From: a virus
Taxonomy: Duplodnaviria; Heunggongvirae; Uroviricota; Caudoviricetes
Virus record (IMG/VR): IMGVR_UViG_3300045988_047713
Location: 1-30,652 of that record
DNA: 30,652 nucleotides
Strand: one strand, 5' to 3'
The position numbers and the translations under genes were made by a program. How positions within the stretch are numbered: position 1 is the stretch's first letter; every line of letters starts with the position of its first letter. Under the pieces are notes generated by a model. The model worked only from the letters and a program-made list of their open reading frames with translations. It was not told the origin of the DNA and ran no database searches. Shown piece after piece: positions 1 through 8,279 of the stretch.

Positions 1-399
1 ACCGTATTTATAATCCCATACGTAAAGCGTATCAGTATTAAAGTCATACCAGCGATAATCACAGGTTCCGTACTGACCGGGCAACAACCAGTCAATGTGA
101 ATGCGAACTTCTGAAAACAGCGGATCAAGTTTCGCACCAACTGAAAGAACATCTGCTATAAAGTCATCCGCGTAAATGTGCATGTCTTCAGTAACCTGAA
201 CACCGTTAGGAGCAAGACACGGCATTAATGGCGGTTTACCTTTAATCTTCTGTTCTAACACCCAGTGCCCGGCTGTACCTTCTTCAGCACTGGGTGACGA
301 TGGTTCTACATAGTCAATCCGCTGTGACAGTTGAACGCTACCCGGACAAGCTAACCAACGTTTTGATCCACTGGCACTAAAGGTAGCGTGACTTGTCAT
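1..399 (-). CDS. PD-(D/E)xK nuclease, Cas4/RecB-like (DUF2800-like); N-terminal 133 codons only, gene runs off the window start
   Basis: Minus-strand frame from ATG at 399-397 stays open to position 1; N-terminus MTSHATFSASGSKRWLACPGS...EEGTAGHW...GTCDYRWYD resembles phage Cas4-like exonucleases; ATGA overlap with upstream gene stop. Not in ORF track (truncated). Confidence 0.5.
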   Translation of the reverse strand, partial: MTSHATFSASGSKRWLACPGSVQLSQRIDYVEPSSPSAEEGTAGHWVLEQKIKGKPPLMPCLAPNGVQVTEDMHIYADDFIADVLSVGAKLDPLFSEVRIHIDWLLPGQYGTCDYRWYDFNTDTLYVWDYKYG

Positions 400-1169
400 C
401 AGAATGCCCCACCCATTTGTTTAACAGATTCAGCCTGACCAACAATGTTTTCAGCATCAGCCGGGGCCGCGTTAATGCGTTCAATCAGTTCGATGATAGA
501 TTTCAGTTTTACTGGGTCGTCAATCTGCATCACGTTCTGAGTTTCATACAGTCCCATGATTCGCTGACTTAATGGCGCAGCACGGTCACCCGTAATTTGT
601 CCAAACATCTGCATCAGTGCTGACTGAAGAACCTGTGTGTTATAAACTTTAGCCGGATCCGTGGTTACAGGTTGCTCGACAGGCGCGACTGGTGCAGCCG
701 GTGCTGCTGGTACAACTGGAGCTACCGGAGCGGCAGGAACCGCTGGAGCAGGATCAACAGGTGCTACATAACCTGGTGCAAGTTCTGCAGGTCCGGTATA
801 ACGCCCTGCTTCAACTGCTTCAGCGATAAGTTCACGTTTAACACCGTCAACAAACGCTTCATCCAGTCTTTTCTTTTGACGCCACAGACCATCACCTTTG
901 TTCAGGGATTTACTGTCAGTGTGGATACGCGGATCATGACGCAAACCCCATTTGTCGAACTCTTCAGTGCTGGTTTCATTATCATCAATATCTTCAGTTG
1001 GTGCAGATACAACAGGCAGTGATTCAGCAACGACAGTCACGGTTTCTTTAGTGATACCATCACCCTGAGCAGTCATGAGTGGTGCAGCACCAGTCGCAAT
1101 AGCATTTGCCAGATTGTTGATCGCAGTTTCCAGACCCGGAGCAGTTACAAGTAATTTAACTTCGAACAT
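399..1169 (-). CDS. hypothetical protein with Pro/Ala-rich central linker (PAAPVAPV repeats)
   Basis: 256-aa ORF; GAGGA RBS 7 nt upstream of ATG at 1169; preceded by two promoter copies; coupled to the downstream nuclease gene. Confidence 0.6.
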   Translation of the reverse strand: MFEVKLLVTAPGLETAINNLANAIATGAAPLMTAQGDGITKETVTVVAESLPVVSAPTEDIDDNETSTEEFDKWGLRHDPRIHTDSKSLNKGDGLWRQKKRLDEAFVDGVKRELIAEAVEAGRYTGPAELAPGYVAPVDPAPAVPAAPVAPVVPAAPAAPVAPVEQPVTTDPAKVYNTQVLQSALMQMFGQITGDRAAPLSQRIMGLYETQNVMQIDDPVKLKSIIELIERINAAPADAENIVGQAESVKQMGGAF

Positions 1170-1201
1170 TACGTTTTCCTCTTGTTGTTTGGTTGTCGCT
1201 A

Positions 1202-1339: not shown

Positions 1340-3001
1340 ATGAAAGCTCGTTATTATCAGACTGAAGCTATCAATAACGTATGTCAGGCATGGTCAAGCG
1401 GTGCTGACGACGTGATTCTTGTGCTTCCCACGGGGGCAGGAAAAACGTTCTGTATGTCTGAACTGGTAAAAACAAGAGACGGTGTAAAAGTCATCCAGGC
1501 ACACCGTAAAGAACTGGTTAGTCAAATCGCAATGGCTGTTGCTCGCCAGGGATTACCACACAGATTTATAGCGCAAAAAGATACTGTTAAGTTTGCAACT
1601 AATCAGCAGATGAAAACGCTTGGTTACAGTACCTATTCCCCCGGCGCTGACATCGTTATTACCAGTTCACAAACGTTAAGAACAAAACAGTACGAACGGT
1701 GGTACAACGATGTGTCTCTTGTATTCAGCGACGAAGCGCATCACCTGGTACGTGGCACACAGTGGGGAGACTGCCGGGAAAAATTCCCTAACGCTAAAGG
1801 TCTGGGTGTTACAGCTACACCGATCCGTGCTGACGGTAAAGGCCTGGGTCGTCATGCGTCAGGTTACGCAGATCAGATGATCATCGGTCCATCAATGCGT
1901 GAGTTAATCAGCCAACAACACCTGGCTGATTATCGCCTGATCATGGCTGAAACAGACCTGGAATTAACTGCAGAAATGATTTCCCATACTACGGGTGATT
2001 ACAAACCCTCTGCGTTAAAAAAAGCGATGGAAGATTCAAACATCGTTGGTGATACCGTCAGTACGTGGAAAACATATGCAGATGGTTTACTCACTGTTGT
2101 GTTTACGTGTGATGTGGATTCTGCTGAAGCACTGGCACAAGAATTTCGCGATGCGGGTATTCCAGCAGAGGCGATCAGCTCACGAAACAGCAATCAGGAA
2201 CGAGCGGATATCCTGGAACGTTTTGAACGACGTAAAACACTCGTGCTATGTAATAACGATTTATTCGGTGAAGGGTACGATTGCCCGGCAATGGAATGTG
2301 CTGTAATGGACCGTCCAACAGAATCTTACTCTTTGTTTGTACAACAGATGGGTCGTCCGTTGCGTTTCAAACCGGGTAAAAAAGCACTGATTATTGATAA
2401 AGTCGGTAATGTTCGTCGATTTCTGGCCCGTGGTTTTCCACTTCCCGATCAGCATTACAACTGGTCTTTAGACGACCGTGACCGTCGTTCATCAAACAGC
2501 AGTGGGAACAGTAACACAACATGTACAAACAAGGGTGATCCTGATAACGGTATTCCACCGTGTCTGAAGCCTTACCCATCTGGTCTACCGTGTTGCCCGT
2601 ATTGTGGTCATGTTCCTGAAAAAGCCGAACGCTCAGGCCCGGATCGTGTAGAAGGTAATTTGCGTGAACTGACACCTGAAGAACTGGAAGAATTACGCCG
2701 GGCAGTGGTAATAATCGACCGTGATCCTGTTGCGGTAAAAGAACAAATGTTGAACGCGGGTGCACCCCATGTTGCAGCTTACAGTGCAATGAAAAATATT
2801 CAGGCAATGAACGATGCACAGCGTAAGTTACGTAGCATGATTACCACATGGGCCGGTATTCAGCGTGACAAAGGTATACCCGTTGATGACGCTTACAAGA
2901 TGTTTTACAGGGTGTTTGGTGTTGATGTGCTCAGTGCTCAGGGATTACGTACTCGTGAAGCTAATGAACTCGCCGCAAGGGTTGCAAGTTCATTAATCTG
3001 A
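1340..3001 (+). CDS. superfamily-2 DNA helicase (DEAD/DEAH-type) with C-terminal Cys-rich zinc-ribbon-like segment
   Basis: 553 aa; N-terminal ARYYQ motif, Walker A LPTGAGKT, Walker B/DEAH-like FSDEAHH, Cys cluster CLKPYPSGLPCCPYCGH. Confidence 0.8.
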   Translation: MKARYYQTEAINNVCQAWSSGADDVILVLPTGAGKTFCMSELVKTRDGVKVIQAHRKELVSQIAMAVARQGLPHRFIAQKDTVKFATNQQMKTLGYSTYSPGADIVITSSQTLRTKQYERWYNDVSLVFSDEAHHLVRGTQWGDCREKFPNAKGLGVTATPIRADGKGLGRHASGYADQMIIGPSMRELISQQHLADYRLIMAETDLELTAEMISHTTGDYKPSALKKAMEDSNIVGDTVSTWKTYADGLLTVVFTCDVDSAEALAQEFRDAGIPAEAISSRNSNQERADILERFERRKTLVLCNNDLFGEGYDCPAMECAVMDRPTESYSLFVQQMGRPLRFKPGKKALIIDKVGNVRRFLARGFPLPDQHYNWSLDDRDRRSSNSSGNSNTTCTNKGDPDNGIPPCLKPYPSGLPCCPYCGHVPEKAERSGPDRVEGNLRELTPEELEELRRAVVIIDRDPVAVKEQMLNAGAPHVAAYSAMKNIQAMNDAQRKLRSMITTWAGIQRDKGIPVDDAYKMFYRVFGVDVLSAQGLRTREANELAARVASSLI

Positions 3002-3042: not shown

Positions 3043-3549
3043 ATGCGTGATTTGATGGTTGACATTGAGACGTGTGGCACTAAACCAGGTTGTGCAGTGC
3101 TGTCAATTGGCGCTGTTTACTTTGATCGTCAGGGTAACATTGGTGAAACGTTTTACGCATCAATGGGTTTTAATGCGCTCGCTTACGGTCACACAGACCC
3201 TGACACTATGAAGTGGTGGTCGCAGCAGTCAGAACAAGCACAAAAAGATGCTTTTGGTGGTACTGCCGATCCTGTTCAGGTTGCTAAAGATTTTGCCAAA
3301 TTCATCTGGCACGATGCTAAACCGTGGGGCAATGGTTCCACATTCGATATCACTATTCTGGAAGCATGGTTTAATGCTGTTGGGGTTCGTTGCCCGTGGA
3401 AGTTCTGGAATGTTCGTGATGTTCGTACAGCTGTTGATTTGCTGGGTATTAACCCGAAAGAATTTACCCGTGACGGTACTTACCACAATGCGTTAGACGA
3501 CTGTTTACACCAAATTAAATATCTTACTAGTGGGACTAAAACATTATGA
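3043..3549 (+). CDS. DEDDh-family 3'-5' exonuclease (DnaQ/RNase T-like)
   Basis: 168 aa; Exo I motif MVDIETCG, Exo III motif YHNALDDC. Confidence 0.75.
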   Translation: MRDLMVDIETCGTKPGCAVLSIGAVYFDRQGNIGETFYASMGFNALAYGHTDPDTMKWWSQQSEQAQKDAFGGTADPVQVAKDFAKFIWHDAKPWGNGSTFDITILEAWFNAVGVRCPWKFWNVRDVRTAVDLLGINPKEFTRDGTYHNALDDCLHQIKYLTSGTKTL

Positions 3550-4037
3550 CAACGCTTGAACAATGGGCGATTCGTCACGGTATTAGTCAGATGGCGTTGT
3601 ACGAGTTATACGCGCTTTATCAGCCTGACGGAACACCACACGAAGACGGTGTAAGTGAAAGCGCCACCAGTAAAGAGTGTGAACTGATTGCGGCACGTGC
3701 CGGGCAACGTATCTGGCGTAATAACTCAGGTGCTCTGAAAAACGAAAAAGGAATGATGGTTCGTTATGGTCTTGGTAACACCAGTGCGAAAATCAACGCT
3801 GTTATGAAGTCAAGCGACTACATCGGCATTAAAACCAAAATCGTTACACCGGATATGATCGGTTCGAAAGTGGGTGTCTTTATTGCTGCCGAAATGAAAC
3901 GCCCTGGCTGGCACATGATCCCCAGTGATAAACGTGCACAAGCACAGGCCACTTTCGGTGCGATTGTTGAAAACGCAGGTGGTGAATTTCGTTTCATCAC
4001 TCACCCTTCACAATTTGAAAAATGGATTAAACAATGA
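3546..4037 (+). CDS. VRR-NUC-like nuclease (PD-(D/E)xK fold), tentative
   Basis: 163 aa; WRNNSGA ... SSDYIGI ... AAEMKRPG spacing matches the VRR-NUC D...E.K pattern; ATGA overlap with exonuclease gene. Confidence 0.5.
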   Translation: MTTLEQWAIRHGISQMALYELYALYQPDGTPHEDGVSESATSKECELIAARAGQRIWRNNSGALKNEKGMMVRYGLGNTSAKINAVMKSSDYIGIKTKIVTPDMIGSKVGVFIAAEMKRPGWHMIPSDKRAQAQATFGAIVENAGGEFRFITHPSQFEKWIKQ

Positions 4038-4207
4038 ATACTGAACGCATTGAACGTCTGCAAAAACTGATTGATAACCACGGTATTGAAGCTGTTGCCA
4101 AACGTCTGAACGTTACTGAAATTCATGTTAAACGTAATCTGCTTACCGGGCGATCTGCTATCAACCTGGTCAAACTGATGGCTGCTGAACGTCAGTTCGG
4201 AGCGTAA
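4034..4207 (+). CDS. small hypothetical protein (57 aa), possibly helix-turn-helix
   Basis: ATG overlapping the upstream TGA (ATGA); fills the gap between two genes; MNTERIERLQKLIDNHGIEAVAKRLNVTEIHVKR. Not in ORF track (<60 aa). Confidence 0.4.
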   Translation: MNTERIERLQKLIDNHGIEAVAKRLNVTEIHVKRNLLTGRSAINLVKLMAAERQFGA

Positions 4208-4210
4208 ATT

Positions 4211-6565
4211 ATGAAAGGGTTACTGAACCGTAAACAGTGGGTCATGTGGCGACTTGAGACAGTCGCCGATCGTCCAAAACCAACGAAAGTACCATACAGC
4301 CCGGTACACGGTTATAAAGCCAGTACCACTAACCCTAACGACTGGTCTGACTATCACACCGCGTTGGGTATGGCGCAAATGTACGGTATGTCTGGTGTTG
4401 GTTTCGTATTCACAGAAAACGACCCTTATTTCTTTATCGATGTTGATAACTGTCTGGTAGATCAGGCGACAGCTACGTGGTCACCTCTGGCGCATGAATT
4501 CGTAAACCGTTTCCCAAATGCTTACACTGAAGTAAGTCAGTCAGGAACAGGTTTACATATCATCTGTGCTTATACCAGCATACCGGAAGGTTTTAACAGT
4601 CTGAACGACCAGAAAACCGGGCTGGAAATGTACTGGCGTGATCGTTTCGTCGCGATGACGCTCACGGGTAATGGTGATGTTGATATTGATTATACCCAGG
4701 GTATTCATGATTCTATTGCCCGGTATGGTCGCATCCGTTCAGACCGTTCCGCACGCTGGACAACAGCACCCTGTGATGACTGGTCAGGCCCGGCAGACGA
4801 TGATGAACTGATTAAAATGGCGTTAAATTCGTCCAGTGCTGCTTCAGTATTTGGTAATAAAGCATCATTTGCGGATCTGTGGAATGCAAACGTTGAACGC
4901 CTGTCTGTGTCATATCCCAGCGACCAGGGAAAAGACTACAATGCATCTGCCGCTGATGCTGCCTTGTGCTCACACCTTGCGTTCTGGACCGGAAAAGATT
5001 GCGAACGTATTGAACGATTGTTTAACCGTTCCGGGCTGGTTCGTGGTAAATGGACAGATCGTCAGGATTACCGTGAAAACACAATTCTGGGCGCTGTGGA
5101 ACGTTGTGATACGGTTTATCGTAGTCAACCGACGCTGACACCAGAACTGATGAAAGCAGTCACACCAGCGCCTACCATCGTTCCTAATGGTGGAACACCT
5201 GCGTATATGAGTGTGAAACCCGGTGAAGGTGCATATGGTTCAAACCACACGGTTAACGCATCCACGTTCGTTAATAACTATTATCCGAACAACACATTAA
5301 TTTTCGTCCAGCAACAGCCGTACCGGTTTAATGGTCGTGTATGGGAACGTGTGAGTGAAGATGAACTGAAACATCAGATATCTATGGCAATGCTCGCCAG
5401 CGAACCAAAAGCTGACGTGATTAATGGTACGTACAAGGTATTGTCGTATTTATTCACACGGGCTGATCGTGAGCTTGGAACATGGCCCGGTGTTGATGTA
5501 TCACACTATATTGTTTGTCAGAACGGGATACTGGATGTACATACGGGTAAATGTGATGCACATAACCCGGATTTCTTTACGACCAGTATTTTACCATATA
5601 GCTATGATCCGTTTGCCCGTGCGCCAGCATTTGAACAGTTTCTTAATACAACTCTGGAAGGTGATCAGGAACGTATTGCACTGTTGCAAGAATGGCTTGG
5701 TTACATGCTTGTCAACTCGTATGACTATCAGAAAGCGATGCTGTTGATTGGTGCGCCACGTTCCGGTAAAGGTACGATCGGTCGTATTATTCAGGCACTG
5801 GTAGGTGACGAAGCATATGCAGGGATCACACTGGAGGGTTTAGCTAGTGATGCGGTACTTGAAACTGTGCTGGATAAATCTGTGCTGTTTATTGGTGATG
5901 CTCACAGTGTGTCCGGGCCTGATCGCAACCGAATTCTGGACCGTTTCAAATCTATTACAGGTTGTGATGCGATTCCGGTTAATCGTAAGTATAAAGGTGC
6001 ATGGAACGGTCGTTTACCGGGACGTATGACACTGGCTGCTAACAACATACCTGCATTTGCTGATGATTCAGGTGCAATGGCTAACCGTTTGCTGATCCTA
6101 CCATTCAACATTTCGTTCCTGGGTCGTGAAGATACCACTCTGGAAGCACGACTGATGAAAGAACTACCGGGGATCTGTAACTGGGCGATTGAAGGTTTGC
6201 AACGGTTACGTGCAAACGGACGGTTTACTGAACCAAAAGCAAGTCTGGAAGAACGTCAGGAAATTATGGATCAACAATCACCACTTAGAAGTTTTATCAG
6301 AGATTGTTGCGAATTGGTATCTGATGGTGAGGTGCACACTGAAGAACTATATGGTCGTTATCGTCTCTGGAAAACACAGGAAGGTGGTCCAGCAATGACT
6401 AAAACTGCATTTAGTCGGGCGTTTAAATCCACCCTTCGTGGTAAAGTGAAAAAAGACGTTGTTAATATAAATAACGTTCGACTAAACGGTTTCAGGGGTA
6501 TTCGTCTTCTCCCTTTTCAGTCAACAGCTAATGTAGTGCCTTTCCCACCTGCGAGTAACGGTTAG
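4211..6565 (+). CDS. DNA primase-helicase: PrimPol-type N-terminal domain fused to D5_N / P4-family SF3 helicase
   Basis: 784 aa; VHGYKASTTNPNDW...GVGFVF...FIDVDNC (bifunctional primase-polymerase motifs); Walker A LLIGAPRSGKGT; Walker B-like VLFIGDAHS. Confidence 0.8.
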   Translation: MKGLLNRKQWVMWRLETVADRPKPTKVPYSPVHGYKASTTNPNDWSDYHTALGMAQMYGMSGVGFVFTENDPYFFIDVDNCLVDQATATWSPLAHEFVNRFPNAYTEVSQSGTGLHIICAYTSIPEGFNSLNDQKTGLEMYWRDRFVAMTLTGNGDVDIDYTQGIHDSIARYGRIRSDRSARWTTAPCDDWSGPADDDELIKMALNSSSAASVFGNKASFADLWNANVERLSVSYPSDQGKDYNASAADAALCSHLAFWTGKDCERIERLFNRSGLVRGKWTDRQDYRENTILGAVERCDTVYRSQPTLTPELMKAVTPAPTIVPNGGTPAYMSVKPGEGAYGSNHTVNASTFVNNYYPNNTLIFVQQQPYRFNGRVWERVSEDELKHQISMAMLASEPKADVINGTYKVLSYLFTRADRELGTWPGVDVSHYIVCQNGILDVHTGKCDAHNPDFFTTSILPYSYDPFARAPAFEQFLNTTLEGDQERIALLQEWLGYMLVNSYDYQKAMLLIGAPRSGKGTIGRIIQALVGDEAYAGITLEGLASDAVLETVLDKSVLFIGDAHSVSGPDRNRILDRFKSITGCDAIPVNRKYKGAWNGRLPGRMTLAANNIPAFADDSGAMANRLLILPFNISFLGREDTTLEARLMKELPGICNWAIEGLQRLRANGRFTEPKASLEERQEIMDQQSPLRSFIRDCCELVSDGEVHTEELYGRYRLWKTQEGGPAMTKTAFSRAFKSTLRGKVKKDVVNINNVRLNGFRGIRLLPFQSTANVVPFPPASNG

Positions 6566-6581
6566 TCATTGCACAAGGATG

Positions 6582-6624
6582 TGTAAAATAATTCTTGACG
6601 AATTACAGATGTGTGCGCTATAGT
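6582..6624 (+). promoter_or_regulatory. conserved sigma70-type promoter, copy 3 (plus strand)
   Basis: UP element GTGTAAAATAATTC, -35 TTGACG (6595-6600), 18-bp spacer, -10 TATAGT (6619-6624); drives the operon 6656-8887. Confidence 0.6.
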
Positions 6625-7061: not shown

Positions 7062-7762
7062 AAATTGTCTGGTCATTATTCGACGGTTCAGGGATTATGG
7101 GCTTACCGTGGGCTGAGGCTGGTTATCATGTTTATTGTTTTAATGCTGATGGTGCAGATCATGGACCATATGATAAATTTCATGCGAGATACATCCACGA
7201 GGGGCTTCATTATATAAATACATGGATAGATGTTAATTTTATGAATGCTGCGGTTGCGGGTATTTATGGGAAGCCGGATATTATATTTGCATTCCCCCCA
7301 TGTACAGACATGGCTGTAAGTGGTGCATCAGCGTTTGAATCTAAAAGGAAAAAAGATCCGTTATTTCAAGAAAAAGCAGCATTTACGGCAATGATTGCAA
7401 GTAGAATCGCTGACCATTTCAATATTCCGTATTTTGTTGAAAACCCGGTCAGTGTTCTTTCTACTTTTTGGCGAAAACCTGATTATATATTTAACCCGTG
7501 GGAATATGGTGGTTATCTACCTGAAAATGACATTCATCCTTTCTTTCCTGAGCATATTAACCCACGAGATGCTTACCCTAAGAAAACATGTTTATGGACA
7601 GGTAACGGTTTTATTATGCCAGAAAAGAAAATTGTCCCGGTTAAAAAAGGTTATTCAAACCAACATCTTAAATTAGGCGGAAAATCTACTAAAACAAAAG
7701 TCATCAGGTCATTAACCCCGCGTGGTTTTGCTCGCGCTGTATTTGAGGCTAACAAACAATGA
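7058..7762 (+). CDS. minimal DNA (cytosine-5)-methyltransferase-like protein, no recognisable target-recognition domain
   Basis: 234 aa; motif I LFDGSG (aa 7-12), motif IV FPPCTD (PC catalytic dipeptide, aa about 79-84), motif VI FVENP (aa about 126-130), C-terminal LTPRGFARAVF resembling motif IX; spacing of I/IV/VI matches classical C5-MTases but the protein ends at 234 aa. Confidence 0.6.
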   Translation: MKIVWSLFDGSGIMGLPWAEAGYHVYCFNADGADHGPYDKFHARYIHEGLHYINTWIDVNFMNAAVAGIYGKPDIIFAFPPCTDMAVSGASAFESKRKKDPLFQEKAAFTAMIASRIADHFNIPYFVENPVSVLSTFWRKPDYIFNPWEYGGYLPENDIHPFFPEHINPRDAYPKKTCLWTGNGFIMPEKKIVPVKKGYSNQHLKLGGKSTKTKVIRSLTPRGFARAVFEANKQ

Positions 7763-8031
7763 TAATCGTCGTCACAGGTGGTCGTGACTTCAACGACAGA
7801 ACAGCAGTGTTTTCAGCATTAGGGTTACTTCACAAACAATTCCCGGTTACCGAACTGATTGAAGGTGGTGCGTCAGGTGTTGATAACCTGTGTAAGCAAT
7901 GGGCGCAATTACACGGTATTCCTGTGCGTAGTTGCCCGGCAGCGTGGGACGATCTGACTGTACCTGGTGCGGTTGTAAAACAGGGTAAGCACGGGACATT
8001 GACCATTTATCACGGGCTGAACCTGTGGTGA
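7759..8031 (+). CDS. SLOG-superfamily (DUF2493/DprA-LOG-like) protein, apparently short or truncated
   Basis: 90 aa; MIIVVTGGRDFND...LIEGGASGVDNLCKQWAQLHGIPV matches the DUF2493 N-terminal Rossmann core; ATGA overlap with the MTase-like gene. Confidence 0.55.
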   Translation: MIIVVTGGRDFNDRTAVFSALGLLHKQFPVTELIEGGASGVDNLCKQWAQLHGIPVRSCPAAWDDLTVPGAVVKQGKHGTLTIYHGLNLW

Positions 8032-8279
8032 AAACTATAAAACTGTGTGATCTGCTGGATAACACATCTTCAATTGTCCGACACGATCCGAAGTTTGCTG
8101 TAACTTACCTGGCTGAAAAACAACTCATGCTTGCTCACCTGTCAGACGCCAGTAATCAGGAATTATACGCGCTTGTTGAGCGTGAATTGTTTAAAGCCAA
8201 ATACAAACTAACGAACGTCCAGTTGACAGCGTTTGACAAACACTACGACGCACTGATTAAAGCGATGGGGGAGTTGTGA
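8025..8279 (+). CDS. hypothetical protein (84 aa), GTG start overlapping the upstream stop
   Basis: ORF track frame; GTGGTGA start/stop overlap; no recognisable motifs. Confidence 0.4.
   Translation: MVKTIKLCDLLDNTSSIVRHDPKFAVTYLAEKQLMLAHLSDASNQELYALVERELFKAKYKLTNVQLTAFDKHYDALIKAMGEL

Follow-up and report, generated by a model that had tools for sequence, protein, structure and literature searches.

A deeply conserved but uncharacterised protein, coupled to a DUF2800 nuclease, heads a phage replication-recombination operon

A gene of a Sashavirus/9NA-like phage, here called X, encodes a deeply conserved yet uncharacterised protein of 256 amino acids, and stands first in an operon for phage replication and recombination that is itself conserved. 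It was analysed in a stretch of viral DNA of 30,652 nucleotides (hereafter the window), where it occupies positions 399..1169 of the minus strand, runs from an ATG start to the terminal residues MGGAF, and opens a leftward operon whose second gene encodes a DUF2800 PD-(D/E)XK ('Cas4-like') exonuclease. The protein carries a previously undescribed small basic domain, here called the WDxRIH mini-domain, which is a portable module. There is, in our judgement, about an even chance that X is a flexible adaptor between the nuclease and replication machinery on one side and DNA or a conserved hub protein on the other.

X and the nuclease are made from one mRNA via a 1-nt stop/start overlap, TGATG (397..401, minus strand), in which the A at position 399 is common to the X stop codon TGA (401-399) and the nuclease start codon ATG (399-397); an identical shared coordinate is found at this junction in the annotation of phage Bas82. 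The nuclease ATG is preceded at 7 nt by the G-rich sequence GGGTGGGG, and X has a Shine-Dalgarno sequence, AAGAGGA, 7 nt 5' of its own ATG (1177..1183 in plus-strand coordinates, on the minus strand). The preliminary description had claimed a coupled gene pair and a 256-aa reading frame with a Pro/Ala linker at 399-1169, and both are confirmed by the overlap of the two minus-strand genes and by translation. Such tight coupling speaks of co-expression, not of physical interaction. X is predicted to be expressed from two tandem copies of the stereotyped promoter-like element of this phage, both on the minus strand: P1 (1202..1230, TTGACA-17-TAAAGT, 10/12 matches) lies within one copy of the conserved element, and P2 (1264..1293, TTGACG-18-TAACAT) within the second. 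The 170-bp divergent region between X and the neighbouring helicase gene holds a 28-nt direct repeat, which counts among the 10 copies of a general promoter-like element scattered over the window. The homologues of X and its dN/dS indicate that the ORF is a real gene; relative to the orthologue in phage 9NA the ratio is 0.14 overall, 0.035 in the N-terminus, 0.076 in the motif region, 0.145 in the C-domain and 0.31 in the first linker. A 116-aa ORF on the plus strand (672-1022) was taken as a shadow of the Pro/Ala-coding region.

The window holds the N-terminal 133 codons of the nuclease gene (1..399, minus strand), as seen from translation and from Pfam and PHROG matches, and the rest of the gene lies beyond the window edge. 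The fragment matches phrog_69, 'exonuclease', and, over profile positions 1-140 of 368, the Pfam family DUF2800 (PF10926), where its E-value is 6.6e-18 and its score of 65.5 bits exceeds the cut-off of 21. The full-length nuclease of Bas82 (381 aa), which is 98% identical to the window gene, matches DUF2800 over profile positions 1-368 (E 5.3e-58) and also PDDEXK_1, so that the nuclease assignment made earlier holds on full-length comparison. E97, D114 and D129-x-K131 are the catalytic residues; they fall within the window fragment (as E97, D114 and D129-Y-K131) and are kept in 12/12 divergent homologues in the alignment. As to the cysteine cluster C...C-x2-C-x5-C of Cas4/AddB-type iron-sulfur nucleases, the full-length homologues share C214-x2-C217-x5-C223 (12/12), at positions beyond the window edge, and Cys18 (WLACPGS), within the window, is below 11/12 conservation in the alignment. 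Pfam scans of the fragment and of the Bas82 homologue gave only DUF2800 and PDDEXK_1, with no match to the Cas4 family proper (Cas_Cas4), and no solved relatives were found by PDB sequence search. The nuclease of the DUF2800-Gp2.5-polymerase module has been reported to trigger a bacterial defence system (bioRxiv 10.64898/2026.07.14.737667).

The operon of complete relatives consists of X, the DUF2800 nuclease, a Gp2.5-like SSB/annealase and a family-B polymerase, and is divergent from an SF2 helicase gene. In the window, the helicase gene (ResIII/DEAD, by Pfam and PHROG matches) occupies 1340..3001 on the plus strand, X lies between it and the DUF2800 gene, divergent from the former and directly upstream of the latter, and a Pfam scan located an NrS-1-like primase-polymerase gene at 4211-6565. 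The Gp2.5-like and polymerase genes are found downstream of the nuclease in Bas82, 9NA and many distant phages. The Gp2.5-like protein is phrog_7011, with the Pfam domain Enc34_ssDNA-bd (PF10991) in distant members, and this SSB has, in place of an acidic tail, a mini-domain at the C-terminus and a long tether of Pro/Ala repeats. The polymerase belongs to family B (PMC11348598), and no solved relative of it was detectable by PDB sequence search. Among 80 IMG/VR viral contigs picked solely by their similarity to X, 76 have a DUF2800 gene on the strand of X and downstream of it, which makes X an obligate companion of this nuclease; the estimated gap between the two is at most 15 nt in 60 of these 76 loci. 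Most of the 80 also have a helicase homologue close upstream of X, on the other strand. The order X then DUF2800 was also found in all four distant metagenomic members, in 7 isolates from different genera and in 14 of 22 genome-bin loci. The reading as a two-gene module without a recognised annealase, put forward as a possibility in the preliminary description, holds only in part: the two genes are coupled, but the operon of the relatives continues with the Gp2.5-like SSB/annealase and the polymerase, so the annealase slot is probably already filled, outside the window.

That X shows no recognisable motif of the known annealase families, as had been stated from the sequence alone, agrees with profile and structure-model searches of the 399-1169 product. 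X matches phrog_27827 ('unknown function') with an E-value of 5.4e-164, and belongs to the family phrog_27827/11133/29341; the aligned relatives match phrog_27827 in 60/60 cases and phrog_11133 in 55/60, and all three PHROGs are annotated as of 'unknown function'. Searches of X against Pfam (E<=0.1), NCBIfam, the PDB and the named PHROGs gave no family match, the PDB sequence matches being confined to low-complexity P/A linkers in proteins that are otherwise unrelated, such as myosin light chain, the lipoyl linkers of E2, and LpoB. When the full model of X was compared with the PDB by Foldseek, nothing was found at E<=0.001, the best match being a generic helical bundle (DAXX, E 0.17), and the comparison with BFVD returned family members only. 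A tblastn search of a phage collection found homologues with 65-99% amino acid identity in 23 phage records; full-length X reached close relatives only in this way, and other genera were reached by a consensus motif peptide. The family comprises 419 clusters at 50% identity, and the domain contexts of X and its mini-domain were surveyed by locus scans of IMG/VR and GTDB. Public labels on the homologues include RecT, recombinase, helicase, TonB receptor and RNase E/G.

Three parts of the protein are under constraint, and the spacers between them are disordered, one acidic and one rich in Pro/Ala (all on the minus strand). Residues 1-25 (1095..1169) form an N-terminal strand-helix element, MFEVKLLVTAPGLETAINNLANAIA, which is invariant in close relatives, with the low dN/dS given above; the AlphaFold2 (AF2) model has a helix at 13-26 with pLDDT 63-73, and an alternating hydrophobic start is present in 119/149 X-family representatives. 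Residues 26-65 (975..1094) form a variable, acidic, disordered linker, according to AF2 and to its dN/dS, with pLDDT below 50 at residues 32-48 and 63-67; across the family, the 25 aa preceding the motif have a median net charge of -4. The mini-domain, defined by AF2 and motif conservation, follows at residues 68-135 (765..968; FDKWGLRHDPRIHTDSKSLNKGDGLWRQKKRLDE...VKRELIAEA). Residues 136-174 (648..764) form a flexible Pro/Ala-rich linker with pLDDT 55-77; the translated Pro/Ala stretch at about residues 127-170 reads PAELAPGYVAPVDPAPAVPAAPVAPVVPAAPAAPVAPVEQPV, and Pro plus Ala make up a median of 55% of the 40 aa following the mini-domain in the family. Finally, residues 175-256 (402..647) are modelled by AF2 as a C-terminal four-helix bundle (helices 178-191, 197-207, 219-234 and 236-251, pLDDT ~93), the sequence of which is lineage-specific, and the C-termini are diverse among the family representatives.

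The core of the mini-domain spans about 45 residues, with the pattern D-x2-G-L-P-W-D-x-R-I-H...D-G-x-W-R-x-K-R-G...V-x-A-E-L, and is present in 140/149 X-family representatives under a strict pattern and in 149/149 under a relaxed one. D72, G75 and W96 are invariant, and D79, R81, I82, H83 and E113 are at least 90% conserved; the conserved basic and aromatic residues are R81, H83, K87, W96, R97, K99 and K100. The lineage of the window phage has R-H in place of P-W in the motif and R in place of G101, and its mini-domain has a net charge of only about +2, as counted from the sequence, which speaks against the adaptor reading. The invariance of D72, together with the conservation of D79 and the near-invariance of E113, could point away from DNA binding. 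Phages of many host classes carry the domain in almost unchanged form. It is modelled with pLDDT ~95 within full-length X and 90 alone, and Foldseek comparison of this model with the PDB gave 5 matches, all with E>3 and thus no structural counterpart. A reading of D-x-R-I-H as a His-Me-finger (DRGH-like) nuclease was considered and set aside as remote, there being no fold support for it in Foldseek.

The mini-domain is also found outside X. A permuted copy, with the halves reversed, occurs near the C-terminus of 7/60 complete cognate polymerases, where the aligned core residues read GTWKRK..V.AEL, then D..G.P.D.RIH.K. The IMG/VR loci show that phages with this insertion still encode X, and X is therefore not simply a trans-acting substitute for the insertion. 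In a Marichromatium gracile prophage, the mini-domain is fused behind a phrog_3657 RecT-like domain; the fusion gene adjoins a DUF3799/exonuclease VIII gene and RdgC, in a module without the family-B polymerase and without the helicase. This fusion represents a single lineage, as the two loci that carry it (L077 and L106) are 100% identical and one 86%-identical fragment was found elsewhere. In addition, one bacterial chromosome encodes a protein with the arrangement T5orf172-HTH-mini-domain-Sel1.

These contexts have no DUF2800 nuclease, phage SSB, polymerase or helicase in common, and the domain hardly varies between phages of different host classes. By elimination, DNA itself is the most likely ligand, or failing that a host hub of very high conservation, for instance the SSB tail or the beta clamp. 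The C-terminal mini-domain of the module SSB was also considered as the ligand and rejected, as several modules with canonical X have SSBs without it. In the adaptor reading, the C-terminal bundle and the N-terminal element would dock phage partners or self-associate, the co-translated nuclease being the prime candidate partner, and the acidic stretch ahead of the basic mini-domain may mask the latter until engagement. X would then act as a flexible tether keeping the nuclease, and through it the annealase and the polymerase, on DNA ends or forks, presumably in the setting of recombination-dependent replication.

Several other explanations of X have to be weighed against the adaptor. It had been suggested that X might be a novel single-strand annealing protein (SSAP) paired with the DUF2800 nuclease, or an accessory factor. 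The former would fit the position of X directly upstream of, and coupled to, a resection-type nuclease, the RecT or recombinase labels on several homologues, and the fusion of the mini-domain to a RecT-like protein in one prophage. The RecT label, however, goes back to a single weak BLAST match (E = 1e-4) to a protein named RecT (PMC4294664), and since Marichromatium gracile, whose prophage carries the fusion, belongs to the same genus as that match, the similarity probably lies in the mini-domain. X itself has no match at E<=0.1 to RecT/Redbeta (PF03837), Erf (PF04404), Rad52 (PF04098), Sak3 (PF06378), Sak4 (PF13479) or Gp2.5/Enc34 (PF10991), and the Pfam search of 60 diverse relatives (E<=0.01) returned no SSAP family either; three homologues that carry a RecT or recombinase label matched only PHROGs of unknown function, with no SSAP Pfam family at E<=1. 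Nor was any solved fold of the Rad52, Redbeta, RecT or gp2.5 type present among the best 50 of the 93 Foldseek matches (E<=10) of the full X model, or any SSAP structure among the matches of the mini-domain. Furthermore, the folded parts of X are small (about 65 and 80 aa), the signature domain also occurs inside polymerases, and the operon already has its Gp2.5-like SSB/annealase (PMC8093625). Nothing tested suggests that X is the missing annealing protein, and we regard this role as quite unlikely; that of an accessory factor is viable. A rather unlikely explanation is that X serves the polymerase or replisome, for example as a processivity or coupling subunit. It would bind the family-B polymerase, the helicase or the primase, and its coupling to the nuclease would be incidental. 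The insertion of the mini-domain near the C-terminus of some cognate polymerases, and the constant position of X between the helicase and the SSB/polymerase genes, argue for this, but X is kept in the phages with the insertion, the mini-domain occurs in a prophage module that has neither polymerase nor helicase, and it is the nuclease to which X is linked most tightly and most constantly.

An anti-host factor like lambda Gam, i.e. an inhibitor of RecBCD or another nuclease, or a decoy against defence, would fit X in some respects: X comes first in its operon, behind promoter-like sites, part of the protein is acidic and disordered, and the gam-bet-exo gene order offers an analogy. Its motif and synteny are nevertheless kept strictly in phages whose hosts are Alpha-, Beta- and Gammaproteobacteria and others, unlike those of typical fast-evolving counter-defence genes, and the signature domain is built into polymerases and a RecT-like protein; no match to lambda Gam or Mu Gam was seen in profile searches of X and 60 relatives or among the best 50 of the 93 Foldseek matches, and the chance of such a role appears slim. 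The 170-bp divergent region with its direct repeat, adjoining X, and an N-terminal strand-helix vaguely like DNA-binding ribbon motifs might instead suggest an origin-binding initiator or a transcription regulator. We consider this very improbable, as the repeat belongs to the general 10-copy element and is not an X-specific iteron, X and its 60 relatives have no HTH or RHH profile match, and the signature domain lies inside polymerases. With its ~250 aa and C-terminal four-helix bundle, X also resembles the layout of the phi29 terminal protein. A priming role of that type would go with a polymerase of family B (PMC11348598), but phage 9NA uses pac-site headful packaging and has a circular assembly (PMC4153490), an NrS-1-like primase-polymerase is encoded in the module, two genes separate X from the polymerase gene, and no terminal protein is found among the best 50 of the 93 Foldseek matches; this last explanation is hardly credible.

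The adaptor reading can be extended, with considerably more doubt, to a wider proposal: the WDxRIH mini-domain may be an undescribed fold binding DNA or a replisome hub, and X would be the essential fourth subunit of a widespread phage machine, in which it organises nuclease, annealase and polymerase for recombination-dependent replication, the fold having been built independently into family-B polymerases and, in one lineage, into a RecT-like protein. The DUF2800-Gp2.5-polymerase module is among the commonest replication/recombination cassettes of tailed phages, and the branch of it that bears X occurs in siphoviruses and myoviruses that infect Enterobacteria, Vibrio, Rhizobium, Burkholderia and numerous uncultured hosts. 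Defining the mini-domain would correct mislabelled public records and help to explain how these phages link end resection with annealing and synthesis, and could matter for portable recombineering systems built from the module. As Bas82, the 98% identical relative, infects E. coli K-12, the question of what X does is directly testable.

The closest known system is the published duf2800-gp2.5-pol module (PMC8093625), which, as cited in that paper, is credited to Steczkiewicz 2012 and Lopes 2010, and which is represented by ORF5-ORF6-ORF7 of phage Enc34 (PMC5686142). There, too, the gene for a PD-(D/E)XK DUF2800 nuclease precedes those for an OB-fold SSB/annealase of the T7 gp2.5 type and for a DNA polymerase, and a separate ssb gene is absent. 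What sets the branch studied here apart is a strictly conserved, co-translated extra gene: the X operon is led by X as a fourth constant gene, coupled to the nuclease, whereas Enc34 has two small unrelated ORFs at this position. The X operon also differs in its polymerase, which is of family B rather than PolA, and in its SSB, with the tether and mini-domain described above instead of the acidic tail.

In the gam-bet-exo order of lambda Red, an accessory gene (gam) stands ahead of the nuclease/annealase pair. The X operon resembles lambda Red and RecET in having a resection nuclease adjacent to and co-expressed with DNA-handling partners, with an accessory gene ahead, but neither the profile searches nor the Foldseek matches listed relate X to Gam, Bet or RecT, and the most likely annealase is the Gp2.5-like protein. 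The C-terminal domain of Redbeta binds lambda Exo and host SSB, and SSB itself has a linker plus an acidic tip. X shares with such docking tails a small interaction module ending a flexible linker, of a kind that organises nuclease, annealase and SSB traffic, and in the fusion prophage the X mini-domain stands exactly where other RecE-linked RecT-like proteins have an acidic tail ending in Phe; on the other hand, there is no sequence similarity to these tails, and in X the module is free-standing in a protein of its own. Accessory insertions are known from phage polymerases, i.e. the thioredoxin-binding loop of T7 gp5 and TPR2 of phi29. The polymerase copy of the mini-domain is likewise a small extra element near the C-terminal part of a replicative polymerase, present in some lineages only, and is set apart from these insertions by being the X mini-domain itself with its halves reversed.

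The phage from which the window derives is a siphophage of the Sashavirus/Nonanavirus (9NA-like) group, and bases 1-1340 show 98% identity to Escherichia phage KarinMuster_Bas82 (Bas82) and ~76% identity to Salmonella phage 9NA. The first gene of the leftward operon, hereafter X, is the minus-strand ORF 399..1169 (256 aa), with an AAGAGGA ribosome-binding site ahead of it, and its TGA shares one base with the ATG of the following nuclease gene in a TGATG overlap (401-397, minus strand). The nuclease gene, also on the minus strand, is cut by the window start, and its remaining 133 codons match Pfam DUF2800 (E 6.6e-18) and phrog_69 'exonuclease', with residues E97...D114...D129-x-K131 invariant across 12 divergent homologues. 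The full-length Bas82 nuclease (381 aa) matches DUF2800 over its whole length (E 5e-58) as well as PDDEXK_1, and contains C-x2-C-x5-C. These matches, the catalytic residues and the one-base overlap therefore confirm the nuclease call of the preliminary description and the coupling of the two genes: X and the nuclease share a transcript, and their translation is coupled. The term 'Cas4-like' used there is fair in a loose sense only, because the Cas4 profile of Pfam itself is not matched by the nuclease.

The X protein had been described as showing no recognised motif of the annealing-protein families (RecT, Erf or Sak type). Of 60 diverse members of its family, none matches any Pfam family, all 60 belong to phrog_27827, 11133 or 29341, which are annotated as 'unknown function', and searches against NCBIfam and PDB sequences matched only Pro/Ala low complexity. 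The family is large and uncharacterised; HMMER, run exhaustively over 1.84 billion cluster representatives (E<=0.001), found 419 proteins, nearly all of 160-340 aa among the matches listed. The members share a core motif with the consensus [LV]-D-[SK]-x-G-[LI]-P-W-D-x-R-I-H-[SA]-x2-K-x(3-5)-N-x-D-G-x-W-[RK]-x-[KR]-[RK]-G-[VL]-D-x(6)-V-x-A-E-L, in which D72, G75 and W96 are invariant, D79, R81, I82, H83 and E113 are conserved in at least 90%, and P-W is replaced by R-H in the Sashavirus/9NA lineage. The strict pattern is present in 140 of the 149 representatives listed and a relaxed one in all 149, the nine strict-pattern misses each having evident motif variants. An alternating-hydrophobic N-terminus is found in 119 of the 149, an acidic stretch (median net charge -4) precedes the motif family-wide, and a stretch of ~55% Pro+Ala follows it, leading to ~114 more residues whose sequences vary by lineage.

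Orthologues of X occur in 23 phage records. Its dN/dS against 9NA is 0.14 overall, with regional values of 0.035 (residues 1-25), 0.076 (66-139), 0.145 (171-256) and 0.31 (first linker). An AlphaFold2 model based on an alignment of 60 sequences confidently folds residues 68-135, the basic region that holds the motif (the mini-domain), into a set of beta-bridges followed by a helix at 104-121 (pLDDT ~95), and residues 175-256 into a C-terminal four-helix bundle (pLDDT ~93); the N-terminal helix has moderate confidence, and the acidic (26-67) and Pro/Ala (136-174) linkers are disordered. X consists of three constrained parts on flexible tethers. Modelled alone, the mini-domain has a pLDDT of 90, and a Foldseek search of this model against the PDB found nothing similar. 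Opposite the part of X that codes for the Pro/Ala stretch, the plus strand has a 116-aa ORF (672-1022), in all likelihood no gene but a shadow ORF caused by the GC-rich, repeat-like codons.

The minus-strand operon of Bas82 and 9NA runs from X through the DUF2800 nuclease and a 'Gp2.5-like ssDNA binding and annealing protein' (phrog_7011, E 1e-100) to a DNA polymerase (phrog_1252), and an SF2 helicase gene starting at window position 1340 is transcribed divergently. This gene set is the duf2800-gp2.5-pol module, known already from phages that infect Gram-positive or Gram-negative bacteria (PMC8093625); the structure of the Enc34 SSB has been published (PMC5686142), and the polymerase in X modules is of family B (BcepB1A annotation; PMC11348598). 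The two-gene recombination module that had been proposed is therefore real as a coupled pair, but in relatives the operon continues, and the annealase sought for it is most likely the Gp2.5-like protein encoded just outside the window; the observation stood, and its interpretation is supported in part. The Bas82 Gp2.5-like protein (7207-8238 of the Bas82 locus) has an OB domain, about ten tandem APTPAAAPVA repeats and, in place of an acidic tail, a small conserved C-terminal unit (GATYEQFISQGWNDEQLIANGYMV) found in some modules only. To the right of the helicase side, a rightward operon (window 3043-6565) encodes a Rv2179c-like 3'-5' exonuclease (3043-3549), a 163-aa protein with a phrog_93 'endonuclease' match and no Pfam match (3546-4037), and an NrS-1-like primase-polymerase fused with a D5-type helicase region (4211-6565).

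The synteny of X with the nuclease is nearly absolute. Of 80 IMG/VR loci selected for nothing but their similarity to X, 76 carry a same-strand DUF2800 homologue downstream, with an estimated gap of <=15 nt in 60 of these; of the four loci that lack one, three lie at a contig end. The gene order is also kept in isolates of seven groups, including siphoviruses and myoviruses, i.e. Stenotrophomonas B2, Proteus 2207-N35, Vibrio 142E35-1, Klebsiella JD001, Burkholderia BcepB1A, a Rhizobium phage and Escherichia PTXU04. In bacterial genome bins, mostly of Proteobacteria and in a few cases attributed to other phyla, X is followed by nuclease and SSB in 14 of 22 loci. Furthermore, four very distant members (23-28% identity to X) each have a DUF2800 gene directly downstream and a DEAD/ResIII helicase gene in divergent orientation; a ~300-aa gene, recognisable as Enc34_ssDNA-bd in one locus, follows the nuclease in three of them and after a small ORF in the fourth, and a polymerase-sized gene comes next in three, the contig of the remaining one ending before it.

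The mini-domain is portable, and recurs in other proteins of DNA metabolism. When the same loci were scanned with a motif profile, second matches appeared unexpectedly in the polymerase that the module itself encodes: of 60 complete polymerases, 7, those of PTXU04 (L032 9971-12136) and its relatives (L028, L029, L031, L033, L036 and L042), have a ~50-residue insertion near the C-terminus that holds both motif halves in reversed order (...GTWKRKNKITDQYYDSVIAELL...KLDAAGVPHDERIHTKNKSQ...). These phages still encode X; the Bas82/9NA polymerase is without the insertion. In JD001 a 507-aa polymerase ORF is followed by a distinct 136-aa ORF that holds the motif, an arrangement suggestive of a split gene. 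One X homologue carries two tandem copies of the motif. A prophage of Marichromatium gracile DSM 203 encodes a 468-aa fusion of a phrog_3657 domain, the mini-domain and a helical tail (L077 5014-6420 and the 100% identical L106 4978-6384; a second contig has an 86%-identical fragment), between a DUF3799/exonuclease VIII gene and rdgC (the RdgC-FtsK-gamma gene). Records of other phages name the phrog_3657 homologues 'RecE-linked protein' or 'RecT-like ssDNA binding protein', and the unfused ones have an acidic tail with a terminal Phe where the fusion continues. In Bordetella, Vibrio and Pseudomonas phages (L097-L099) this tail is long and acidic/Gln-rich, ending in ...KEVF, ...ITNF and ...NDVF, which recall the C-terminal tips of SSB and gp2.5. 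Two Magnetococcales proteins (141-153 aa) consist of the N-terminal element and the mini-domain and nothing else. The only non-phage context seen is a chromosomal 608-aa protein of a Burkholderiales bin (L110 4714-6540, between glyQS and a HAD phosphatase gene), composed of T5orf172/MUG113, HTH, mini-domain and Sel1 repeats.

The Marichromatium fusion is probably also the source of the 'RecT' names on X homologues. ORF15 of Pseudoalteromonas phage B8b was named RecT from a BLAST match of E = 1e-4 to a Marichromatium purpuratum protein called 'RecT protein' (PMC4294664), and because the M. gracile prophage encodes the fusion, this match probably fell on the mini-domain, not on an annealase domain. 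'RecT' or 'recombinase' is the label in B8b, Stenotrophomonas B2, Proteus 2207-N35 and Vibrio 142E35-1. Homologues so labelled match just the three PHROGs of the family, and a Pfam scan of three of them (E<=1) gave no match to a RecT profile. Others are labelled 'helicase' (AVIO78A, PJ16, PDP46), 'putative TonB receptor protein' (Solent) or 'ribonuclease E/G' (Rhizobium phages); all these identities are unsupported by profile searches and untenable for X.

The 170-bp divergent region contains a 28-nt direct repeat (1218-1245 and 1281-1308), each copy of which holds one of two minus-strand sigma-70-like sites revealed by scanning (TTGACA-17-TAAAGT and TTGACG-18-TAACAT). The core 16-mer GTCAAGAATTATTTTA, within the extended consensus TTG(C/T)AATnnGTCAAGAATTATTTTA(A/C)A, occurs 10 times in the window (nine exact copies and one that differs at a single base), where chance predicts 0.04, at 1226, 1289, 13105, 15239, 21257, 23480, 25249 and 29080 on the plus strand and at 6584 and 29385 on the minus strand. 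Read on the opposite strand, it gives an A/T-rich block, a TTGAC(G/A) -35 box and TAnnnT ~17 nt later, and in our reading every copy so oriented faces an adjacent gene on the appropriate strand. The element is probably the stereotyped promoter of this phage, or promoter plus operator, and is possibly bidirectional; with copies facing adjacent genes and two of them ahead of X, expression of X seems to depend on a tandem pair of this putative standard promoter.

As to the role of X, the motif is almost invariant across very different hosts, and the contexts of the mini-domain share no common phage partner, the Marichromatium prophage module being devoid of DUF2800, Gp2.5-like SSB, family-B polymerase and SF2 helicase. 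We therefore infer that the ligand is, in the simplest view, DNA or a host hub of high conservation, and the conserved Arg, His, Lys and Trp positions fit both alike. The mini-domain would engage this ligand, and phage-specific docking or self-association would fall to the N-terminal element and to the C-terminal bundle, which is lineage-specific; the co-translated nuclease is the obvious candidate partner. With these roles, X would be a flexible adaptor of the nuclease-annealase-polymerase machinery, a proposal to which we give an even chance.

All the rival readings were rated lower. That X is an accessory factor of the polymerase seems unlikely. That it is a novel annealase, as had been suggested, is less likely still, given that the Gp2.5-like protein most likely already serves the operon in this capacity and that the RecT-labelled homologues of X match no RecT profile; a Gam-like anti-host factor is just as doubtful. 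A role as initiator or regulator is very improbable, and a terminal protein, which conflicts with the pac-site headful packaging of 9NA (PMC4153490), is the least probable of all.

The adaptor role is thus a proposal, and the function of X is open to direct experiment, since a 98%-identical copy is carried by Bas82; because Bas82 is a phage of E. coli K-12 (PMC11990801), decisive experiments should be straightforward. Compared with what is already known, i.e. the nuclease and the duf2800-gp2.5-pol module, the new element is a fourth component, conserved and co-translated, whose small domain had not been described and is also present in polymerases and in one RecT-like fusion.
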